Virus record (IMG/VR): IMGVR_UViG_3300033067_000818
Location: 1-25,072 of that record
Source of the DNA: a virus
Taxonomy: Duplodnaviria > Caudoviricetes
Direction: 5' to 3' (one strand)
DNA: 25,072 bases
Positions 1-25,072 of the stretch are shown here, one piece after another; within the stretch, counting starts at the first letter, position 1, and each line of letters starts with the position of its first letter. The notes beneath the pieces were generated by a model, which did not search any database, had not been told where the DNA came from, and saw nothing but the letters and a program-made list of their open reading frames with translations. Position numbers and translations under genes: made by a program.

Positions 1-133
1 GCGTGAACATGCCCCGCCTCACTGCTTCGTTGAACTCGTCCAGGCTCAATACTGCGCTCGGCGTGTGCTCGATCTCTTCGGTCGAAAAGCCTTCGAGGAT
101 CTGCAGAAACTTGTGCGTTTCGTTGAGCTTCAT
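1..133 (-). CDS. Hypothetical protein, 3'-truncated by window edge (MKLNETHKFLQILEGFSTEEIEHTPSAVLSLDEFNEAVRRGMFT...)
   Basis: Not in ORF track; ATG at 133 overlaps the TGA (130-132) of the acyltransferase (ATGA coupling) and the frame is open for 44 codons to the edge. Confidence 0.7.
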   Translation of the reverse strand, partial: MKLNETHKFLQILEGFSTEEIEHTPSAVLSLDEFNEAVRRGMFT

Positions 134-681
134 CGTGCACGCGCCCTGAGCTGCCGCTCAAGCTCGTAGATGCGCACGAGCGGACGCTTTCCAAGCACAC
201 GGCAGGGAACGCCGCCGTTGACCGTCCATGGCTCGATGTCTCGTTTCACCAGCGAGCACGCGCCCACAACTGCGCCCTCGCCAATCGTCACGCCTGGCAG
301 CACAACGCTATTCGCGCCGATGATGCAGTGCTTTCCGATTTTGATGAACGAGCGTGAGACGGCGCGAAACTCAGGCGGCACCGTCGGGTTTGTAAGCGCG
401 CTGCCAAGGTAATCGTCGTTTCCGGTGAACAAGCGCACGCCTGCGCTGATGCCCGAGAAGTCGCCCATGTAGAGACGGCCGCCGCCTTGGATCGAGCTGT
501 CGCACGCAAGGTGCACGTAGCTGCCGATCTCGGTTTCATCGGCGGCGAAGAGCTTGGCGCCGGTGTCGATCATCACGTGGTCGCCGAGAGTGACGTGCTT
601 GGCGCCGACAAAAACCGCGCCGGGGTGAATGACGATGTTCTCGCCGCACGACTTGAACGCATGCGAGTTGAAGGCGTTCAT
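130..681 (-). CDS. Hexapeptide-repeat (left-handed beta-helix) acyltransferase, AntD/VioB-like NDP-4-amino-4,6-dideoxyhexose N-acyltransferase
   Basis: [LIV]G hexapeptide repeats (TLGDHVMID, EIGSYVHLA, IGKHCIIGANSVVLPGVTIGEGAVVGA); loop NDDYLGSALTNPTVP and C-terminal WTVNGGVPCRVLGKR...IYELE resemble Bacillus AntD as recalled; ATGA-coupled to upstream SDR. Confidence 0.85.
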   Translation of the reverse strand: MNAFNSHAFKSCGENIVIHPGAVFVGAKHVTLGDHVMIDTGAKLFAADETEIGSYVHLACDSSIQGGGRLYMGDFSGISAGVRLFTGNDDYLGSALTNPTVPPEFRAVSRSFIKIGKHCIIGANSVVLPGVTIGEGAVVGACSLVKRDIEPWTVNGGVPCRVLGKRPLVRIYELERQLRARAR

Positions 682-1391
682 GCCATTCCCCCGTTCACGC
701 CGAGCACTTGCCCGGTGATGTACGCCGCCTCATCGCTGAGCAGGAAAGCCACGAGCGCTGCGAGCTCTTGCGGCTCACCGAGTCGCGCGAGCGGGATCGT
801 GCCCATGACGTGGCTGAGCGTGTTTGCGTCGACGGAGCGAATGAGCCCGGCCGAGAAGTAGCCCGCCGCGATGGCATTCGCGGTGATGTTCTTCGGCGCC
901 AGCTCAAGCGCGAGCGACTTCGTGTAGCCAATGACGGCAGCCTTCGCTGCAGCGTAGGCTGCAGCGCCAGCGATGCCAGTTTGACCCACCACGCTCGTCA
1001 CGTTGACGATGCGGCCGCGCCCGGCGTTGCGCATGCGCGGGATCGCCCCTTTGCAGACGTTGTGTGTGGTGATGACGTTCTGCTCGAGCACGTTGGCAAA
1101 GTCGCCGGCGCCGAGCTTCCACGACATGCCGTTGATGCATCCGCCGGCAAGATTCACGATGCCCCATAACGGCGTCGACGTGCCGGCGGCGTGAAGCATC
1201 AGATCGGCCGCTTGCTGCTCGTCAATGAGATCGGCTTTGATGAGCCGCACCTTGGCGTCTGGCGCGACGATCTTGGGCTCGACGGATCGATACTGCGCGA
1301 CCACGTCGTAACCACGCAAAGCGAGCACGCTTGCGACGACGCTGCCGAGCCCACCGCTTGCGCCAGTGACGATGACGGTGCCGCTTACCAT
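678..1391 (-). CDS. Classical short-chain dehydrogenase/reductase, FabG/PhaB-like 3-oxoacyl-(ACP/CoA) reductase
   Basis: TGASGGLG Rossmann motif, VNLAG, GRIVNVTSVVG catalytic Ser, YAAAK (YxxxK), C-terminal IPLARLGEPQE...YITGQVLGVNGG. Confidence 0.92.
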   Translation of the reverse strand: MVSGTVIVTGASGGLGSVVASVLALRGYDVVAQYRSVEPKIVAPDAKVRLIKADLIDEQQAADLMLHAAGTSTPLWGIVNLAGGCINGMSWKLGAGDFANVLEQNVITTHNVCKGAIPRMRNAGRGRIVNVTSVVGQTGIAGAAAYAAAKAAVIGYTKSLALELAPKNITANAIAAGYFSAGLIRSVDANTLSHVMGTIPLARLGEPQELAALVAFLLSDEAAYITGQVLGVNGGMA

Positions 1392-1654: not shown

Positions 1655-1823
1655 TGCTGTCTCCTTTTTGCTTGCCGAAAACCGCCGGCCGCAGAATGCG
1701 GCGGACGATCGCTGACACACTGTTTTCTTCGTCGAACGCGATTTGCTCGAGCGCCTCTTTGAGCACCGGCTCAACCATGATGCTCATGGTCACGAGGTCG
1801 TCTTTTTCAGTTTGCATTGCCAT
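1581..1823 (-). CDS. Ribbon-helix-helix (CopG/Arc-like) DNA-binding protein
   Basis: Alternating beta strand VTMSIMV then helices EPVLKEALEQIAFDE and NSVSAIVRRIL; GGAG 10 nt before ATG 1823 (alternative ATG 1817); overlaps both neighbours. Confidence 0.7.
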   Translation of the reverse strand: MAMQTEKDDLVTMSIMVEPVLKEALEQIAFDEENSVSAIVRRILRPAVFGKQKGDSNGRGKRSKATVRGTYDRQARRPKR

Positions 1824-2892
1824 GATGGTGAATCTCCGTTTTTCCGTAGAACTCATCGAGCGCCGCGCATAATTGCCGGTTCTCGTCTGCTGTCATGTCG
1901 GCAGGGAAAGCCACGCACGAGCGCTGCCACGGCTCGTAGTTCGCGCCCGGGATCGGATCGTAGGTGCGCCTGCACTGAAACCCACGCTCGGCCATGAACG
2001 CCACGAGCTCGTCGGCGCGGGGCATCGGGAACACGGGCAGTGATGGCCAGTTGCCGAGCTGCGGGAAGTCGATCCCGTCCTTGCTTTGCATCTCCTTGCC
2101 GTCGCTTTTCCCGGCGCCGTAAGCGTGGGTCGCCACGTGGATCACGAGCGCGCGCATGTTGTCCGCTCGTCGCTCGAAGTGCTTGGCGTGTTCGAGCTGC
2201 TCGATGAGCAACGAGCAGCGCAGCTCATCGAGCTTGGCGTTGATGCCGAACGGCTCGACGGGCTTGCGGTCGATGTCGAACCCGAACGACATAGCGCGAT
2301 GCACGGCAAGCTGCGCCATCTCGCGATGCTTTGGCACAAGCACCGCACCACCTTCGCCGATCGGAAAATTTTTCGTTGCGTGGAAGCTCACCGCCACAAT
2401 GCAATCCTTGCCGATGTGCTCGAACGCCGATGCATCGCCAAAGCCACCGGCGGCGTCGATCACGTCGTTCGCTCCGCACCAAAGCAGATCGCGATCGTAT
2501 CCCCACCACTTCGTGCGCACGGCGATCTCGGTGGGGTCGACGCGCTCGTTGGTGTCGATGATCGTGACGTCGTGACCGGCGACCATTTTGGCAGCGCACA
2601 GCGTCGCGTGAAAGGTGAACCCTTCCACGTTCACCGCGCCGTTGTAGCAAGAGAGCGACTGCTCACGCGAAGCGCCGTAGATGGCGAGCGCGACTGCATC
2701 AGTGCCATTGGCCACGGGGAAAGCGACGTAGCGCCCCTCTGTGAAGTTTTCGAGTCGGCGTGCAGCTTCGTGCCACAGCGTGCCGCGGTTGCTATGCTGC
2801 CCGGTCATGTTGGTGACGTGCTTCCACCGCAGATAGAAGTCGTCGCTTTGCGGGAACGATGGGCGGGTGAGTGGTACGCGGGGGTTTGCCAT
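1807..2892 (-). CDS. DegT/DnrJ/EryC1/StrS PLP-dependent sugar aminotransferase, VioA/AntC-like
   Basis: ANGTDAV, FTFHAT, IDAAG (PLP-binding Asp), SFHATKNFPIGEGGAV (catalytic Lys), SFGF and GINAKLDE; SFHATK plus GxNxK is typical of the VioA subgroup. Confidence 0.88.
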   Translation of the reverse strand: MANPRVPLTRPSFPQSDDFYLRWKHVTNMTGQHSNRGTLWHEAARRLENFTEGRYVAFPVANGTDAVALAIYGASREQSLSCYNGAVNVEGFTFHATLCAAKMVAGHDVTIIDTNERVDPTEIAVRTKWWGYDRDLLWCGANDVIDAAGGFGDASAFEHIGKDCIVAVSFHATKNFPIGEGGAVLVPKHREMAQLAVHRAMSFGFDIDRKPVEPFGINAKLDELRCSLLIEQLEHAKHFERRADNMRALVIHVATHAYGAGKSDGKEMQSKDGIDFPQLGNWPSLPVFPMPRADELVAFMAERGFQCRRTYDPIPGANYEPWQRSCVAFPADMTADENRQLCAALDEFYGKTEIHHHGNAN

Positions 2893-3210: not shown

Positions 3211-4428
3211 TTACGTCTGTGTGCCAACACTGACGAAAGTGCCAGGGGTTCCCGCGGCCGTGCAAATTTTGAGCACGCCGGCCGTCGTCACGTACATGTG
3301 ACCGATCTGGTGTGCGCCGCTCGGTGTTGATTGCGCGATCACGCGAAACGCCGCCGTTGCGCTATTTCCAGAAACTGAAAGCGCCGTGCCCGATGCGCCG
3401 CTGTGCGACACGCCGATGCCCGTTCCTGTGCCAAGGTGCCCAACGCTGAGACCGGTCGACGATGCATCGCCACCAGATCCCATGAGCACGTTTAGCGCGG
3501 TGAATGATCCGCTTCCGCTGTGCTCGACAGATGCCGCGATCCCGTTGGTGGCCAGCGCTCGCAAACCGTACGTGCTCGCGTTTGCCGTCTCGAATTTGCC
3601 GCCGCATGAGTTTCCGGTTGATCCGGCTGCACCGTACACGCCGGCGCCGGTACCGTCAGGGACGCCGACAACGCCGCTGCCATTCGATCCAGCCTCGGCC
3701 ACGCCTTTGACGCCAGCGGCCGCGCCTGTGCCGAGAACGCCAATGCCAGTCGAGAGCCTGCCCGTACCCTTGACGCCGATCGTTCCGTTGCCGCCGAACG
3801 CGTTGCCGGTGCCCGTGATCGCGGCATCGCCTTCGTTGGGTCCCGAGTACGCCGACACGCTCTTGAGCGTTGGCAGCTGCGCAAAGTCGCGGTTCTCGAT
3901 CTGGTGAATGTTGCCGCTGTTGACGGTGTTCACCCATCCGTTGGGCACCGTGACGTAGCCAAGTATCACGTCGCCGGCGACCTTCGATGGCACGACCGGG
4001 CTGGCAGATGGCGTGCCCTGAATCACGACCACTTGCGACTTCTGCAGCGTCGTCAGGATCACGGTGTCGTGCGGCAGCGTCGGACGGTTGATCGTGAGCC
4101 CAGTCGCTTGGTTTTTGCGCGCGACGATCAGATCGAAACGGATGTTGGTGGGATCGCCTGCAGCGATCGGCGCAACGGTGTTCGAGTCGACCACGTGCAA
4201 GTATCCGTCATCGCCGAGCGCGACGAACGCAGACACGTTCACCGATGCGTTGGCGCCGTTCGGCGAGATGACGCCACCCGAGAGCGTCGCTGCCTTCGTG
4301 AGGTAGGCGAACGATCCACGCATCTGATCGACGAGCGTGCCTTGGATCGCTGCAAAGTCGCTCGGCCCCCAAAGGTACCGTTGATAGAAGTTGTAAAGCG
4401 GGCTCGCTGCGTTCGCGTAGGTGGCCAT
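3211..4428 (-). CDS. Tail fibre / receptor-binding protein
   Basis: Downstream of baseplate genes; AGGAG SD; N-terminal attachment-type motif IAAGDPTNIRFDLIVAR...GTPSASPVVP...VILGYVTVP; Gly-rich GVxG repeats suggesting a beta-helix. Confidence 0.8.
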   Translation of the reverse strand: MATYANAASPLYNFYQRYLWGPSDFAAIQGTLVDQMRGSFAYLTKAATLSGGVISPNGANASVNVSAFVALGDDGYLHVVDSNTVAPIAAGDPTNIRFDLIVARKNQATGLTINRPTLPHDTVILTTLQKSQVVVIQGTPSASPVVPSKVAGDVILGYVTVPNGWVNTVNSGNIHQIENRDFAQLPTLKSVSAYSGPNEGDAAITGTGNAFGGNGTIGVKGTGRLSTGIGVLGTGAAAGVKGVAEAGSNGSGVVGVPDGTGAGVYGAAGSTGNSCGGKFETANASTYGLRALATNGIAASVEHSGSGSFTALNVLMGSGGDASSTGLSVGHLGTGTGIGVSHSGASGTALSVSGNSATAAFRVIAQSTPSGAHQIGHMYVTTAGVLKICTAAGTPGTFVSVGTQT

Positions 4429-19205: not shown

Positions 19206-20132
19206 TTAAGCGCCGAGCACTTCCGTTACGGCCGTTTGGTATTCACTGAGGCGCGTGCCGAGCTCTTCGACGCGCGCAGAGAGCGTTGCCATGTGCTGAT
19301 CGGCGTCTGGCATCGCGATGCCTTCGGCCGTGAAGTGCATGAAGTCCCGAAGGTACTTGCACTTCGCCATGAGGTCTTGGACGTTGCCGCTCTTGGCCGC
19401 GTCTTCGATGTCCACGACCATCTTGCCGAGCTTCTCGACCGTGAGCGCGAGCTCCTCGGTTTTATCGGTCTTCTGCGTTGTCTCGCTCGCGAGCTTCACC
19501 GGCGCGGCCGCAGGCGTGGCGAGTTTCGCCTTGTCGCCCTTGGTCTTTCCGCGCGTCATGTTCGCGCGCGTCTCTTCCTCGAGCGCGGCCAGGCGAGCCG
19601 ACTTGGCGTCAGCCTGAACCGTGGTGAGGTCGACAGCGGCGACGCTGCCGAGCTGACCCGTGTGGATCACGGGCTGGCGCGCTTCGTAGGACGAAAGCAC
19701 CGCCTCGATCGTTTCCTTCGAGCCCGCGGCGAGCTTGATCACGTCGATCTTCTTGCGCTCGGCCGGCGTGATCTTCGCCGCCGACTGCAGCTTGGCGAGA
19801 CGCACGCTGATGTTGCCGGCCGTCGCCGCAAGGCGCGCCTGCGTGAGCGACTCGCCCGCCGCAGTGCCGAGCTTCGTGAGCTTGTCTTTGCCGGCGGCGA
19901 GACGGGTCACGGTCGCGGCGTTCGCGGCGTGCAGCTCGTCCTGCTCTTTCTTTTTCTTCTCGTCCTCTTCGGCCGCGAGCTTCGCTTTCTTCTCTTCGTC
20001 CTCGGCCGCTGCGAGCTCAGACTTTTTCTCGTCGTCGCTCATCTTGGACAGCTTGTCGTCAGCGTCTTTCTCGCTGAGGTTTTGCTTGTCCATGAGTCGC
20101 TTTTTCAGGGCTTTGAGCTGCTCTTCGTTCAT
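19206..20132 (-). CDS. Nested in-frame scaffolding protein (Mu gpZ / lambda Nu3-like, 308 aa)
   Basis: GGAG (20141-20144) 8 nt before in-frame ATG 20132 (Met172), at the protease/coiled-coil boundary. Confidence 0.65.
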   Translation of the reverse strand: MNEEQLKALKKRLMDKQNLSEKDADDKLSKMSDDEKKSELAAAEDEEKKAKLAAEEDEKKKKEQDELHAANAATVTRLAAGKDKLTKLGTAAGESLTQARLAATAGNISVRLAKLQSAAKITPAERKKIDVIKLAAGSKETIEAVLSSYEARQPVIHTGQLGSVAAVDLTTVQADAKSARLAALEEETRANMTRGKTKGDKAKLATPAAAPVKLASETTQKTDKTEELALTVEKLGKMVVDIEDAAKSGNVQDLMAKCKYLRDFMHFTAEGIAMPDADQHMATLSARVEELGTRLSEYQTAVTEVLGA

Positions 20133-20645
20133 TCGGATCGCTCCATTGGTGAGCAGCGACGCCTTTGCCGCTGCAGGGAAAGGCGTGACCGTCAGCTCGG
20201 TCAAAACGCCTGCGTCGAAGTCTGCGCCAACGGACAGGTGACACCACCGTCCATCACGCGCCTTCTCTGCGTTCTCTGCGCCGAGGAAACGGCAAGCGCC
20301 GAACAAACCAAGCCGTTCGGTGCCGTCGATGACGACCGGCGCAAGTTCGAGGTCGACGGGCAGCACGCGGCCGATCGTGACCGTCGCGCTTGTCGAGTGA
20401 TCGAGCTGCAGCGGCGGCAGCAGGCGTGGAACAAAGTCGCCTTCGTTCCGCGCGAGCGCCATGCGTGCGTTGTGGTTCGTGGCGAGACGCTGCAGCATCT
20501 CGGCGGTGACGGTTACCTCACCGTCCATGCTGTTGAAGGTTCCCGTGTAAACGAGCAGCGCGCGCTTATCGAGCGACGAGCCGTCATCGGCCGCCGCAAG
20601 GTGCGTCGCTTCTAGGTGCCCGCCTTTGAGTCGCGTCAACTTCAT
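19206..20645 (-). CDS. Prohead protease-scaffold fusion (Mu gpI-like architecture)
   Basis: N-terminal protease-like domain (GTFNSMDG, PLQLDH, GRWCHLSVG, ELTVTPFPA) followed by charged coiled coil and AAKITPAER. Confidence 0.85.
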   Translation of the reverse strand: MKLTRLKGGHLEATHLAAADDGSSLDKRALLVYTGTFNSMDGEVTVTAEMLQRLATNHNARMALARNEGDFVPRLLPPLQLDHSTSATVTIGRVLPVDLELAPVVIDGTERLGLFGACRFLGAENAEKARDGRWCHLSVGADFDAGVLTELTVTPFPAAAKASLLTNGAIRMNEEQLKALKKRLMDKQNLSEKDADDKLSKMSDDEKKSELAAAEDEEKKAKLAAEEDEKKKKEQDELHAANAATVTRLAAGKDKLTKLGTAAGESLTQARLAATAGNISVRLAKLQSAAKITPAERKKIDVIKLAAGSKETIEAVLSSYEARQPVIHTGQLGSVAAVDLTTVQADAKSARLAALEEETRANMTRGKTKGDKAKLATPAAAPVKLASETTQKTDKTEELALTVEKLGKMVVDIEDAAKSGNVQDLMAKCKYLRDFMHFTAEGIAMPDADQHMATLSARVEELGTRLSEYQTAVTEVLGA

Positions 20646-20809
20646 TGGCAGGTGTCATTGTTTGCCTGCCGCGTTGTCGATTCGCTTGCGCTCTCTCGAC
20701 AAGGCGCAAGGTGTCACGATGCGTGCGCGCGTGTAAAGAAAACGGAACCTGTCAAGAGGTTTCGCGCGCGGTCTACCTAGTGCATTCTTGGGCCATTCTT
20801 TGGCCGTAA
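20646..20809 (-). promoter_or_regulatory. Probable regulated late promoter / leader for the head-tail genes
   Basis: 164-bp gap with TTGACA (20750-20755) inside an AACCT/AGGTT inverted repeat, direct repeats and leader hairpins; no canonical -10 at 17 bp. Confidence 0.45.
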
Positions 20810-21738
<929 letters not shown>

Positions 21739-21748
<10 letters not shown>

Positions 21749-22266
21749 GGGGCAAGGTACCCTAGGCGGGTGAATCCGGGGATGTTGCCGAGCACGCGCT
21801 GCTTTTGCCACACGCCATCGCCGTCGCGTTGGTTCACCGCTCCCGTGTTTCCTTCGACGGTGCGTAGCGACACGCCGCCCGTTGGCTCCATGAAAACACC
21901 GGTGATGATGCCGCAGTGCCCTTGCATCTTGTTCGAGTCGTGTTGCCACACAACGATGCAGCCCGGCGTCGGAACTAGACGGCGCTGCGCCTTCGGCGTC
22001 GACTCCCACAGGCCGATCGTCCACTCGGTGCCAAAGAGCACGTTGTGCGAGCTCGGCGGGTAAGTGACGAGCGCGCGGTCAAAGAGCTCGTCGATCTGCT
22101 TCACGCAGTGCTGAACGAAGCACACACACCAAGGCTCGCCGCTCGCCACGCCGTCGACTGCGCGTTGGAACTTCTCGATCATAGCACCGCCGTTCGTCTT
22201 CGTTTCGGTCACGCCAACGAACTGCTCGGCGAGCCATGCTAGCGCGCCCTCTTTCGGGTTGATCAT
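21739..22266 (-). CDS. CHAP-domain peptidoglycan hydrolase (endolysin candidate)
   Basis: GEPWCVCFV (catalytic Cys), PTPGCIVVW, GHCGII (catalytic His), TVEGNT. Confidence 0.88.
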
Positions 22267-22505
22267 GTCTGTCCCTTTGTCGTTTCGTCGAGCTCATCGG
22301 GCATGCCCCGCAGCTGCTCGAGCTGTTCATCCGTCATCAGATTGCCGGCGTCTATCTGCTCGTTGATGATCTCGCCGAGCAGGCGCGCCACGTTGTTGAA
22401 GTCGACGGTTTCGCCGGCGCGGCGCAGCACGTGCAGACGATCGATCAGCGTTTCGGCCACGATGCCAACAAGCTGCTCAGGCGTTGGCTCTCGGCGATCA
22501 CTCAC
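22263..22505 (-). CDS. Acidic hypothetical protein (80 aa)
   Basis: GTGA and ATGA overlaps with both neighbours; no motif recognised. Confidence 0.65.
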   Translation of the reverse strand: MSDRREPTPEQLVGIVAETLIDRLHVLRRAGETVDFNNVARLLGEIINEQIDAGNLMTDEQLEQLRGMPDELDETTKGQT

Positions 22506-22807
22506 CCGTGCATGCCCATCTTGGTCTCCAAGATCGTTTGCCGGCGATCGATGTCGCGCACGATCTCGCCCATCGCTTTGAACTGCTCGACGGTGACCTG
22601 CGATTTGACCGCAGCCTCCACCGAGTCAAAGCGAGCTTTGTAGCGAATGGCATCGCGCCGCACGAACGCCCACACGAGCGAGAGAAGCGCGCACGCGATG
22701 ACGACGAGCGAGCCCTTAGGCAGCGATTCTAGGATCGATGACTCGCCGATCCCGGCCATCGTGATCGTGGAAAGAAACGCTGCGAATGAACCCTGAGAAC
22801 CGTCCAT
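22502..22807 (-). CDS. Small membrane protein, holin-like
   Basis: One clear hydrophobic helix SLVVIACALLSLVWAFV followed by RR and a coiled coil; two genes upstream of the CHAP hydrolase; start uncertain. Confidence 0.55.
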   Translation of the reverse strand: MDGSQGSFAAFLSTITMAGIGESSILESLPKGSLVVIACALLSLVWAFVRRDAIRYKARFDSVEAAVKSQVTVEQFKAMGEIVRDIDRRQTILETKMGMHG

Positions 22808-22855
22808 GCGCAGACAGTGCCAGCGAGGCGCGGCTTTCGTCTAGTTTTGCGAGGC

Positions 22856-25072
22856 TTAGCGGATCAACGTGGCTTGCAAGTCGTAGGCATCGAAGCGCAC
22901 GATCTTCGATCCCGTGCCCGCACCGCTCGACCACTTGCCGAGGATTGGCGAGACGCTTTGGCCGTTTCCGCTCGGCACGTTGCTCGTGATCTGTGCGCCG
23001 AGCGACGTGTAAGCGCCGGTGTCGACCGCATAGTAGCAATTCACTTTTGTGCCGTCCGGCGACATCACCCACTTGAGCCGCCACCAATGGCCCGCTGTCA
23101 TCGCTGCGCCGGCGCCGCCGCTCGTCGTGCTCGTGGAGCTCGCCGCAGTCGCCTTGCATTGCCATTGGCCGCTATTGGTGCCGCTTGTGTACTGAAAATA
23201 GATCCCGTTGGTTTGCGTCGCCGAGCTGACGACGTTCCCGAGCCCGACAATAATCGTGTACGTGTTCGTGCTGTCGCTCAGCGCGTCGACGTAAACAGTC
23301 GCTTCCATCTGCCAGCCGTCAACGGTCGCGCCCATCGCCATGCCGCCGGTGTCGTAATAAATCGCCCCGCGGCCGCTCGCGCTCGTGCCGTTGACGATCA
23401 CCTGTCCAACGTGGCTCGCGTCGCTGCCCGTCGTGCTGCCCGTGGTGATCGTGTCGGTTGCCGTCGACGTCGCCCAGCCGTTGAAGCCTGCAGCGCTGTT
23501 GGCGATCCACTCTTCGTGAAGCCTAAAGCGCGTGATGTCATCGGCGGGGATGTAGCGGCAATTCCACGTGCTCGCGCTCTCGGCGTAGCAGTCGAACGAC
23601 GAGTTGATCGGCACGCTCACCGCAGCATCAGCGGCAAGGCATGGCCCGCCCGGATTGTGCAGCGAGCAGATCGAATCGCCAGTGCCAGGGAAAAGCGCCG
23701 CGTATGCTGCGCCCTTGTTGACGACCATGCAGCGATCGCCGGCCGTTGGCGTGGCAGGCAGGATCACCGAGTCGCCAGCCGTTGCGACCGTTCCGAGCAC
23801 TGCCATGTAGCTCGTTCCCGAGCTCGTGCAGATTGCCGTCGCGCTGCCGCTGCCGCCGCCGGCGTGCGCAGTGATGCTCGTGGTCACGGTGAGCCCGCCG
23901 CCGCTGCCTGCGGGGCCCGTGGGGCCAGTTGGGCCGGTCGTGCCTGTGCCCGTTGGGCCAGTCGGACCGGCCGGGCCCGTGTTGCCAGTCGCACCCGTGG
24001 GGCCGGTCGGACCGGCTGTGCCGCAAGATTTGTAGGTCTGATCGCCGTACAAGCACGTGGTGCTATTCGCCGTGCCGCTGCCGAGTCGCGCGGTGGCCAT
24101 AGTGCCGCTCTGGATCGACGCAGCGTCCAAGCCGCCGAACGCGAGCACGTTGCTTTCAAGCCGCAGCACGTCGTGTGCGCTCGCTGCGCTGATGTCTGCG
24201 ACGTTACCACCAGTGTTCGCCGAGCGACCGATCACGCTCGTCGCGCCACCGGTGCGCAGCTTGGCGTCAGTGACAACGTTCGTGTCGATGGTCCACACGG
24301 TGCCGCTTGAGCTGACGACTACGTCGCCCTTGTCGCCGTCGCTGATGCCTGGCCCGGTTGCGCCCGTTGCGCCCGTTGCGCCCGTTGCGCCCGTGGGCCC
24401 AGTTGGCCCTTGCGGGCCCGTGTTGCCCGTTGCGCCTGCGCTGCCCGTGTTACCGGTTGCGCCCGCGGGGCCAGTGTTGCCCGTCGCACCTGTGACGCCG
24501 GTAGGTCCGGTGATGCCCTGCGGTCCCTGTGGACCGGTGTTGCCGGTGTTACCCGCCGAACCCGTCGCTCCCGTTGGACCGGTGATGCCTTGCGGCCCCT
24601 GCGGTCCGGTCGCACCGGTGTTGCCGGTAGCGCCAGCGCTGCCCGTGTTTCCGGTCGCGCCGGTTGCTCCCGTTGGGCCAGTCGGACCGGTGAGTCCGGT
24701 GTTACCAGCCGAGCCCGTTGCGCCAGTCGCACCGGTTGCGCCTGCAGTGCCTTGCGGGCCGGTGTTTCCGGTCGCACCCGTGACGCCAGTCGGACCCGTG
24801 ATGCCTTGTGGTCCCTGTGGTCCCTGTGGTCCCTGCGGCCCCGTGGCGCCCGTAGCGCCTGCCGATCCTGCGCTGCCTGTGGCACCCGTCGCGCCGGTTG
24901 CTCCCGTGGCGCCTGCAGTGCCGGCCGAGCCCGTCGCACCCGTGGGGCCAGCGGCACCCGTGGGGCCGGTAGGTCCAGTCGGACCAGCGGGCCCCGTGCC
25001 ACCGCTGCCGCCGCTCGCTCCGCCCGTTGCAACGGTCCACCATTGGCCGTTGCGGCGTTTCAGGATCAACGT
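22856..25072 (-). CDS. Collagen-like (Gly-X-Thr rich) fibre protein with phage fibre repeats and C-terminal lectin-like beta-sandwich; 5'-truncated
   Basis: Frame open to window edge; about 74 contiguous GXY triplets, then GDKGDVVV and [11 protein letters not shown] fibre motifs, a second short GXY tract and two globular domains. Confidence 0.88.
23900..24022 (-). repeat. Second, short collagen tract with one register interruption
   Basis: [41 protein letters not shown]. Confidence 0.85.
24347..25012 (-). repeat. Collagen Gly-X-Y coding repeat, including perfect 9-bp tandem units
   Basis: About 74 triplets by hand count; GCGCCCGTT x3 near 24360-24386 and TGTGGTCCC x3 near 24807-24833. Confidence 0.95.

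Follow-up and report, generated by a model that had tools for sequence, protein, structure and literature searches.

A threonine-rich collagen–lectin fibre and a family-wide glycosyltransferase in uncultured Mu-like myophages

The fibre gene and its neighbours

The window, by which we mean the whole 25,072-nucleotide stretch of viral DNA that was analyzed, carries a Mu-like contractile-tail module and a lambda-type capsid with a decoration protein, all on the minus strand, as judged from Pfam and PHROG scans of 31 proteins. This agrees with the tailed, myovirus-type phage proposed in an earlier sequence-only reading, and tail-fibre PHROG matches likewise bear out its assignment of the collagen-bearing product as a fibre protein. 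The fibre is encoded in a minus-strand frame which runs stop-free from 25072 to 22856 (738 residues) and is followed by two small ORFs, a CHAP endolysin and MuF, so that it sits beside lysis and head-morphogenesis genes. The features discussed below are presented in Table 1.

Table 1. Position of the fibre gene, its segments and the sugar-related genes in the window
Feature	Position	Strand	Basis or remark
Fibre gene, 5'-truncated	22856..25072	minus	738 residues visible; tail-fibre PHROG matches
Residues 1–17, end of a domain starting outside the contig	25022..25072	minus	aligns to the G041 protein from residue 636 onward
Main collagen tract, residues 18–242	24347–25021	minus	75 uninterrupted Gly-X-Y triplets
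Non-collagen segment, residues 243–350	24023..24346	minus	widespread in phage fibre-like proteins
Short second collagen tracts, residues 351–394	23891..24022	minus	9 + 5 triplets, by triplet count
Domain B, residues 395–509	23546..23890	minus	six cysteines; homologue comparison
Predicted C-terminal L-type-lectin/ConA beta-sandwich (SO2946-like)	22859..23545	minus	Cys pair; AlphaFold2 model
CHAP endolysin, downstream of the fibre	21739..22266	minus	Pfam/PHROG; order as in G041 and L116
DegT/DnrJ/EryC1/StrS sugar aminotransferase	1807..2892	minus	PF01041, E = 3e-16; intact PLP motif
FabG-like short-chain reductase	678..1391	minus	Pfam
Hexapeptide-repeat acyltransferase	130..681	minus	Pfam

The 5' end of the fibre gene is lost at the contig end. 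The homologue in the closest relative, G041, has 1230 residues compared with the 738 visible in the window, and the two proteins are 55% identical over 342 aligned columns. Contigs from run X1, which is possibly the source sample, tile positions 20000–25072 and their major form matches the window letter for letter, so the collagen tract is not an assembly artefact; the gene is real, with its start missing. Contigs from these runs reach beyond both window ends, one X1 contig continuing 534 nt further past the cut end of the fibre gene, and run X2 of the same study also spans the tract. Two variants were observed in run X1: a minor form with an in-frame loss of 9 nt at 24828 (within 24737-24887), in which the collagen is shorter by one triplet, and a co-existing tail-fibre allele at 3478-3906 with 26 differences in 325 nt.

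The Y position of the 75 triplets is occupied by threonine in 50, alanine in 12, glutamine in 10, serine in 2 and glycine in 1, and the tract contains no D, E, K or R, which confirms the earlier observation of about 50 threonines in about 74 uncharged triplets. When glycine is barred at X the tract comprises 72 triplets, 49 of them with threonine at Y, and the protein matches the Pfam Collagen family (PF01391) at E = 1.4e-33. Alanine (25) and proline (24) are about equally frequent at X. GPT had been given as the commonest triplet, but it was found only 11 times against 23 for GAT, with GPQ (10) and GNT (9) close behind. Threonine at Y has been reported at 48.3% in Gram-positive collagens (PMC3368898) and 31.6% over all bacterial collagens (PMC8968730), and the usual bacterial Thr/Gln collagen pattern is described in these sources as mostly free of sugar. 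Threonine at Y is an ordinary bacterial pattern which does not imply glycosylation, and the collagen taken alone is ordinary.

Outside the main tract, the middle region (residues 236–352) has 299 homologues. The six cysteines of domain B are all-or-none among homologues and may form three disulfides. The AlphaFold2 model of the C-terminal domain (pLDDT 93.8) gave TM scores of 0.55–0.62 against legume lectins, 0.65 against 2a5z and up to 0.85 against uncultured phage proteins, and SO2946 was also matched. Because the model has an L-type-lectin fold, this domain is predicted to be a glycan-binding tip. A search of GenBank phages with the tip returned one weak match only.

BclA from Bacillus anthracis has a C1q/TNF-like C-terminal domain and GPT as its dominant triplet, whereas the window protein is a GAT-dominated phage product with a predicted lectin tip and, likely, a Sec leader and disulfides. 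Like BclA (PMC7793302, PMC8968730), it combines a long, uncharged stalk having threonine at Y with a C-terminal globular domain, and the same genome holds a DegT-type aminotransferase and a hexapeptide acyltransferase; by contrast, a glycan on the window collagen is putative and the sugar genes are not tied to collagen across relatives. The E. coli O157 prophage side-tail fibres EPclA/B (PMC3368898) are also phage fibres with a collagen stalk between globular domains, but these are rich in charge and have 20% threonine at Y, where the window fibre is uncharged, has 67% threonine, is lectin-tipped and likely carries a leader.

The sugar genes had been placed in the same gene block as the collagen. 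They are co-directional with it, but roughly 25 genes and about 20 kb separate the two: the sugar genes lie past the tail fibre, at the opposite end of the virion module, and are interspersed with a small SSB-like gene and one of the ribbon-helix-helix type. Of the VioA/AntD-like enzyme proposed there, what stands is a DegT protein with an intact PLP site (Asp146 and Lys174, invariant in 6/6 aligned sequences); scores against all specific models fell far below cut-off and VioA identity is not established. The FabG-like reductase was found in none of 14 relatives searched. No glycosyltransferase was present among the 31 proteins scanned from this truncated window, which stops 130 nt past the acyltransferase; in G041 and its near-duplicate G042 a GT2 gene directly follows the acyltransferase homologue. 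The cut ORF at the left end (44 residues) was ruled out as a GT2 start as it matched nothing in relatives. Promoter and terminator scans of the window gave results at shuffle level and are silent on operon limits. The small gene at 1385-1654, which had no Pfam match and is presumably SSB-like, has its best plasmid match on a Myxococcus plasmid (49%, E = 2e-12), and Myxococcota clusters were matched too. This offers a weak hint, from sequence similarity, of a Myxococcota host.

The phage family and its fibres with predicted leaders

The window phage belongs to an uncultured family of Mu-like myophages of about 50 kb. Its capsid protein has 464 homologues at E ≤ 0.001, of which the best 119 non-self matches are 59–73% identical, while no match was found among 50,697 GenBank phage records. 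The capsid alignment used as query recovered 37 viral, 1 genome and 31 metagenome loci, and a glycosyltransferase scan recovered 16 loci, 6 of them from new records; no locus was recovered from viral contigs when the fibre C-terminus, the capsid or DegT served as a single-protein query. The capsid's only GTDB genome match is L039 (JAHEYR010000086.1), a 12-kb contig in a Bacteroidales MAG which is possibly misbinned. We analyzed 23 whole records together with L002, itself a whole record, with genes called by our own script, and the Pfam scan of the family covered 76 cluster representatives and 96 singletons of at least 150 residues.

Export leaders were called with a simple hydropathy heuristic of our own, not with SignalP. 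Among homologues of the middle segment, leaders were called in 7/14 collagen-bearing proteins versus 5/99 others, and among C-terminal homologues in 5/7 collagen-bearing proteins versus 27/137 others; the same heuristic called none in 120 capsid proteins or 305 core genes. In the G041 homologue the leader begins at a GTG codon which overlaps the upstream stop. Domain-B homologues (n = 38) fell into 17 with a leader and at least four cysteines, 6 with at least four cysteines and no leader called, 15 with neither and none with a leader and few cysteines. Where at least five of the six cysteines were present a leader was called in 15/21 proteins, and several of the others had visibly hydrophobic or truncated starts. 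The window domain B groups with the six-cysteine form, and since this form is a single clade its correlation with leaders counts as one event. Of the six nearest relatives of the lectin domain, three had a leader and two cysteines and three had neither, while cysteine count and leader were not associated over all 90 lectin-domain homologues (p = 0.63) or among Ser/Thr-rich family proteins (p = 0.33).

Leaders are not confined to the collagen-bearing proteins, and 9/13 near-complete relatives (G008, G014, G015, G022, G024, G026, G034, G035 and G041) have at least one leader-bearing, Ser/Thr-rich, fibre-like gene, for example L077:12868-15912 and L056:5434-7923. One of the leader-bearing genes encodes a tail-collar domain and another an S74 chaperone domain.

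Since collagen-bearing homologues often have leaders and the window protein has their cysteine-rich domain versions, the window fibre is likely to be exported by way of an N-terminal leader, its own N-terminus lying outside the contig. It could instead be an ordinary side or head fibre assembled in the cytoplasm, the leaders of its homologues being anchors or not applying to the window allele. The tail-fibre PHROG matches would fit such a fibre, as would the occurrence of the lectin domain at the tip of a protein in the tail-fibre region of the cultured phage Pan5 and the absence of leaders from most non-collagen homologues; we nevertheless regard it as unlikely given that the G041 homologue, with the same flanks and gene position, has a leader and that the window has the six-cysteine form of domain B. 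Bdellovibrio MAT fibres (PMC10769870) are likewise described as mosaic proteins that resemble phage fibres, carry a signal peptide and vary in their binding tips, but those are chromosomal adhesins whereas window-type genes lie in a phage late block, and the likeness drawn here is one of architecture. A search of the literature, with most subscription journals outside its reach, found no report of leader-bearing phage fibres.

Glycosyltransferases and sugar genes across relatives

The earlier proposal of a phage equipped for glycosylation holds at the level of the family. A GT2 gene was found in 13/13 near-complete genomes, or 11/11 capsid-anchored genomes when the two found through the GT2 type c22 are left out. 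There is exactly one GT2 per genome, and the two types are mutually exclusive, c22 occurring in 9 of the 13 genomes and c42 in 4. The c22 type had no match in Pfam, NCBIfam, a PDB sequence search or GenBank phages; its model is soluble, single-domain and folds as GT-A/GT2. The c22 and c42 profiles are colinear over 198 columns but the alignment is weak (E = 0.008), so that their kinship rests on fold and position. A c22-type gene lies at L075:5946-6698 and has nine further homologues, and a DegT–acyltransferase–GT cassette was also seen in two larger phages which do not have the family capsid, G037 (104 kb) and G038 (152 kb).

The family repertoire further includes RmlB, RmlC, RmlD, DegT, two acetyltransferase types, methyltransferases and a GT9-like gene. 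In G030 and G036 GT9 heptosyltransferase-like genes adjoin RCC1-cluster genes after the tail fibre (L085:11380-12390, L075:9610-10614). The DegT of the window is closest to those of G041 and G042 (36–38% compared with 23–28% for others), and these genomes also hold the closest relatives of its endolysin and SSB-like gene. The G041 DegT (L146:1135-2140) is split over two reading frames, by assembly error or real inactivation, and is whole in the near-identical G042.

To relate collagen to sugar genes a matrix of 13 genomes was used, made up of G041 (88% complete) and 12 genomes with a completeness of at least 90%; G042, in which the fibre region is missing, and all shorter fragments were not included. 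DegT was present in 7 of the 13, always with c22, and collagen in 1. Over the wider set DegT was found in 8/36 records (5/11 at least 90% complete) and collagen in 2/40 (0/12 at least 90% complete), and 3/25 distinct capsid-anchored loci covering the head-gene island had collagen, the carriers being scattered on the capsid tree. An association of collagen with VioA/AntD-like genes, suggested as a check on the sequence-only reading whose failure would count against it, was not observed: the Fisher p value for collagen and DegT was 1.0 over the 13 genomes and 0.47 with the window added, at low power with only two collagen genomes, and DegT stood without collagen in 6/7 near-complete DegT genomes. 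A specific collagen–aminotransferase pairing is not supported. All three collagen genomes with a visible sugar region (the window, G041 and L106) do contain sugar genes, which is to be expected because GT2 is universal in the family.

These data bear on whether the phage GT2, or a GT4, might decorate the threonines at Y with a 4-acylamino-6-deoxysugar glycan ahead of export or assembly, to give a BclA-like, glycan-coated fibre. Threonine at Y reaches 67% in the window as against 8.9% in viral collagens generally (PMC3368898). Collagen is joined in G041 with DegT, a methyltransferase, an acyltransferase and a c22 GT2; in L106, where RmlC and RmlD lie close by, a GT4 directly follows a collagen fibre gene (L106:2392-4672) in the interval from portal to MuF, and no other locus is as good a candidate for a pairing of collagen and transferase. 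The association of FabG, acyltransferase and DegT is presumably reminiscent of anthrose synthesis and of flagellin-glycan acylation. Polypeptide GalNAc-transferases were among the top Foldseek matches of the c22 model (TM 0.63), but the fold is generic GT-A and the bacterial GT2 6p61 fits as well (TM by target 0.75). Besides the lack of a statistical pairing with DegT, four genomes with the window's cassette type (G002, G006, G030 and G040, each with DegT, the same type of acyltransferase and c22) have neither collagen nor a leader-bearing Ser/Thr-rich protein, in G041 the collagen is whole where DegT is split, and a phage collagen with 20% threonine at Y is reported to be stable without glycosylation (PMC3368898). 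Glycosylation of the collagen by phage enzymes is compatible with other acceptors and does not exclude them, but even as an additional acceptor of family glycosylation the collagen seems doubtful.

The Mimivirus precedent put forward with the sequence-only reading also proved less close than supposed. Mimivirus collagens are modified on hydroxylysine by L230, with viosamine located in fibril polysaccharides (PMC9614988), which makes this a weaker parallel. The pairing was thought to be undescribed for a myovirus; pelagimyophages are reported to have collagen-repeat and ConA-domain structural proteins together with deoxysugar and glycosyltransferase genes (PMC7029224), although these are not presented there as enzyme and substrate, and our own literature search, which most subscription journals lay outside, found no phage collagen or fibre described as the substrate of a phage sugar pathway. 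Overall the observation made in that reading is confirmed and its interpretation is partly supported.

Proposed roles of the fibre and the sugar cassette

The account we favour, at a probability of roughly 0.55, is that the accessory collagen–lectin fibre is exported through Sec, and that the distant sugar genes belong to a family-wide glycosyltransferase cassette which acts on a conserved virion protein and not on the fibre. The fibre would be made late, exported via host Sec, then disulfide-folded and trimerized outside the cytoplasm. Three chains would form a triple helix of about 65 nm, rich in threonine, alanine and glutamine and held by hydration and the flanking domains without sugars. 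Such a fibre would be an interchangeable glycan-binding appendage. It might be acquired by the particle during lysis, or else act as an adhesin that stays on the cell surface or is released from it; we slightly favour its joining the virion.

In the same account DegT, the acyltransferase and the FabG-like reductase would make an NDP-4-acylamino-6-deoxyhexose, with FabG perhaps tailoring the acyl group, to supply a GT2 whose gene fell beyond the end of the contig. The target of the sugar enzymes is probably one that members of the phage family have in common, and not the collagen fibre. A virion protein appears the likeliest acceptor because late genes surround the cassette, a search of 18 records gave no tyrosine integrase and, in three TET genomes, DNA has a transferase of its own; we would put a conserved virion protein as acceptor at even odds. 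Two observations speak against this acceptor. No conserved C-terminal Ser/Thr tag was found on capsid or tail tube, capsid ends being variable (serine or threonine in the last three residues of 53/120) and tube ends mostly hydrophobic; and in several genomes TET/ParB DNA-modification genes adjoin the cassette, some of whose genes are on the opposite strand. For mycobacteriophages, glycosylation of virions by phage enzymes is established. A comparable case is mycobacteriophage Che8, where phage glycosyltransferases are proposed to act on virion proteins (Freeman et al. 2023, via PMC11256854, PMC12619734). The window's relatives also encode glycosyltransferases, but they differ in being myophages with variable nucleotide-sugar pathways of their own, in the missing end tag and in having a putative acceptor.

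Alternatively, the cassette could act on host LPS, EPS or surface proteins during infection, altering the envelope so as to prevent superinfection, and be unrelated to the virion. RmlB/C/D, the NeuD/PglB/VioB acetyltransferases and the GT9-like gene are enzymes of surface polysaccharides, and the same role is proposed for the pelagimyophage genes (PMC7029224). Pelagimyophages and cyanomyovirus S-SCSM2R (PMC7029224, PMC12801897) resemble the window phage as myoviruses with deoxysugar and glycosyltransferase genes; theirs are read in these sources as modifying the host cell wall, whereas the window family is Mu-like, about 50 kb, and has a single GT2 per genome. With no integrase found in 18 records, a GT2 whose model is soluble and single-domain, and genes placed between terminase, portal and MuF or after tail fibres, we consider an envelope function rather unlikely.

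It is also conceivable, though quite improbable, that the cassette sugars feed DNA hypermodification. TET genes were present in 6/13 genomes, genes of the TAGT, ParB-like and ADDT types also occur in the family, and in G024 the order DegT–acetyltransferase–GT2–methyltransferase–ParB–TET runs all in one direction. Against this, the 7/13 genomes without TET still have GT2, three TET genomes own a TAGT, c22 had no match to TAGT-type transferases, and the main text of a preprint on DNA glycans (bioRxiv 10.1101/2023.12.21.572611) does not mention aminotransferase, rhamnose or acetyltransferase. A separate TET-associated glycosyltransferase accompanies the virion-block GT2 in G014, G034 and G035. 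DNA-modification genes of the family (TET/JBP dioxygenase, TAGT, ParB-like, ADDT with glutamine amidotransferase, PhyH) were observed in G014, G022, G024, G030, G034, G035 and G040.

A fuller scheme, in which the family makes acylated amino-sugar glycans, adds them to threonine-rich collagen in the cytoplasm, exports the product through Sec, folds it with disulfides and fits it to the particle at lysis as a glycan-coated appendage matured in the periplasm, we judge decidedly improbable.

What the favoured account leaves is an accessory fibre that is real, carried by a phage family which has yet to be described; GT2 is universal among its near-complete genomes, the sugar pathways vary and the glycosylation target is a proposed one. 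If fibres with export leaders are borne out, part of the recognition gear of a tailed phage would mature outside the compartment in which the particle is built. With one GT2 per genome and swappable rhamnose and amino-sugar pathways, the family offers a clean and testable system outside Actinobacteria for the study of such putative virion glycosylation.
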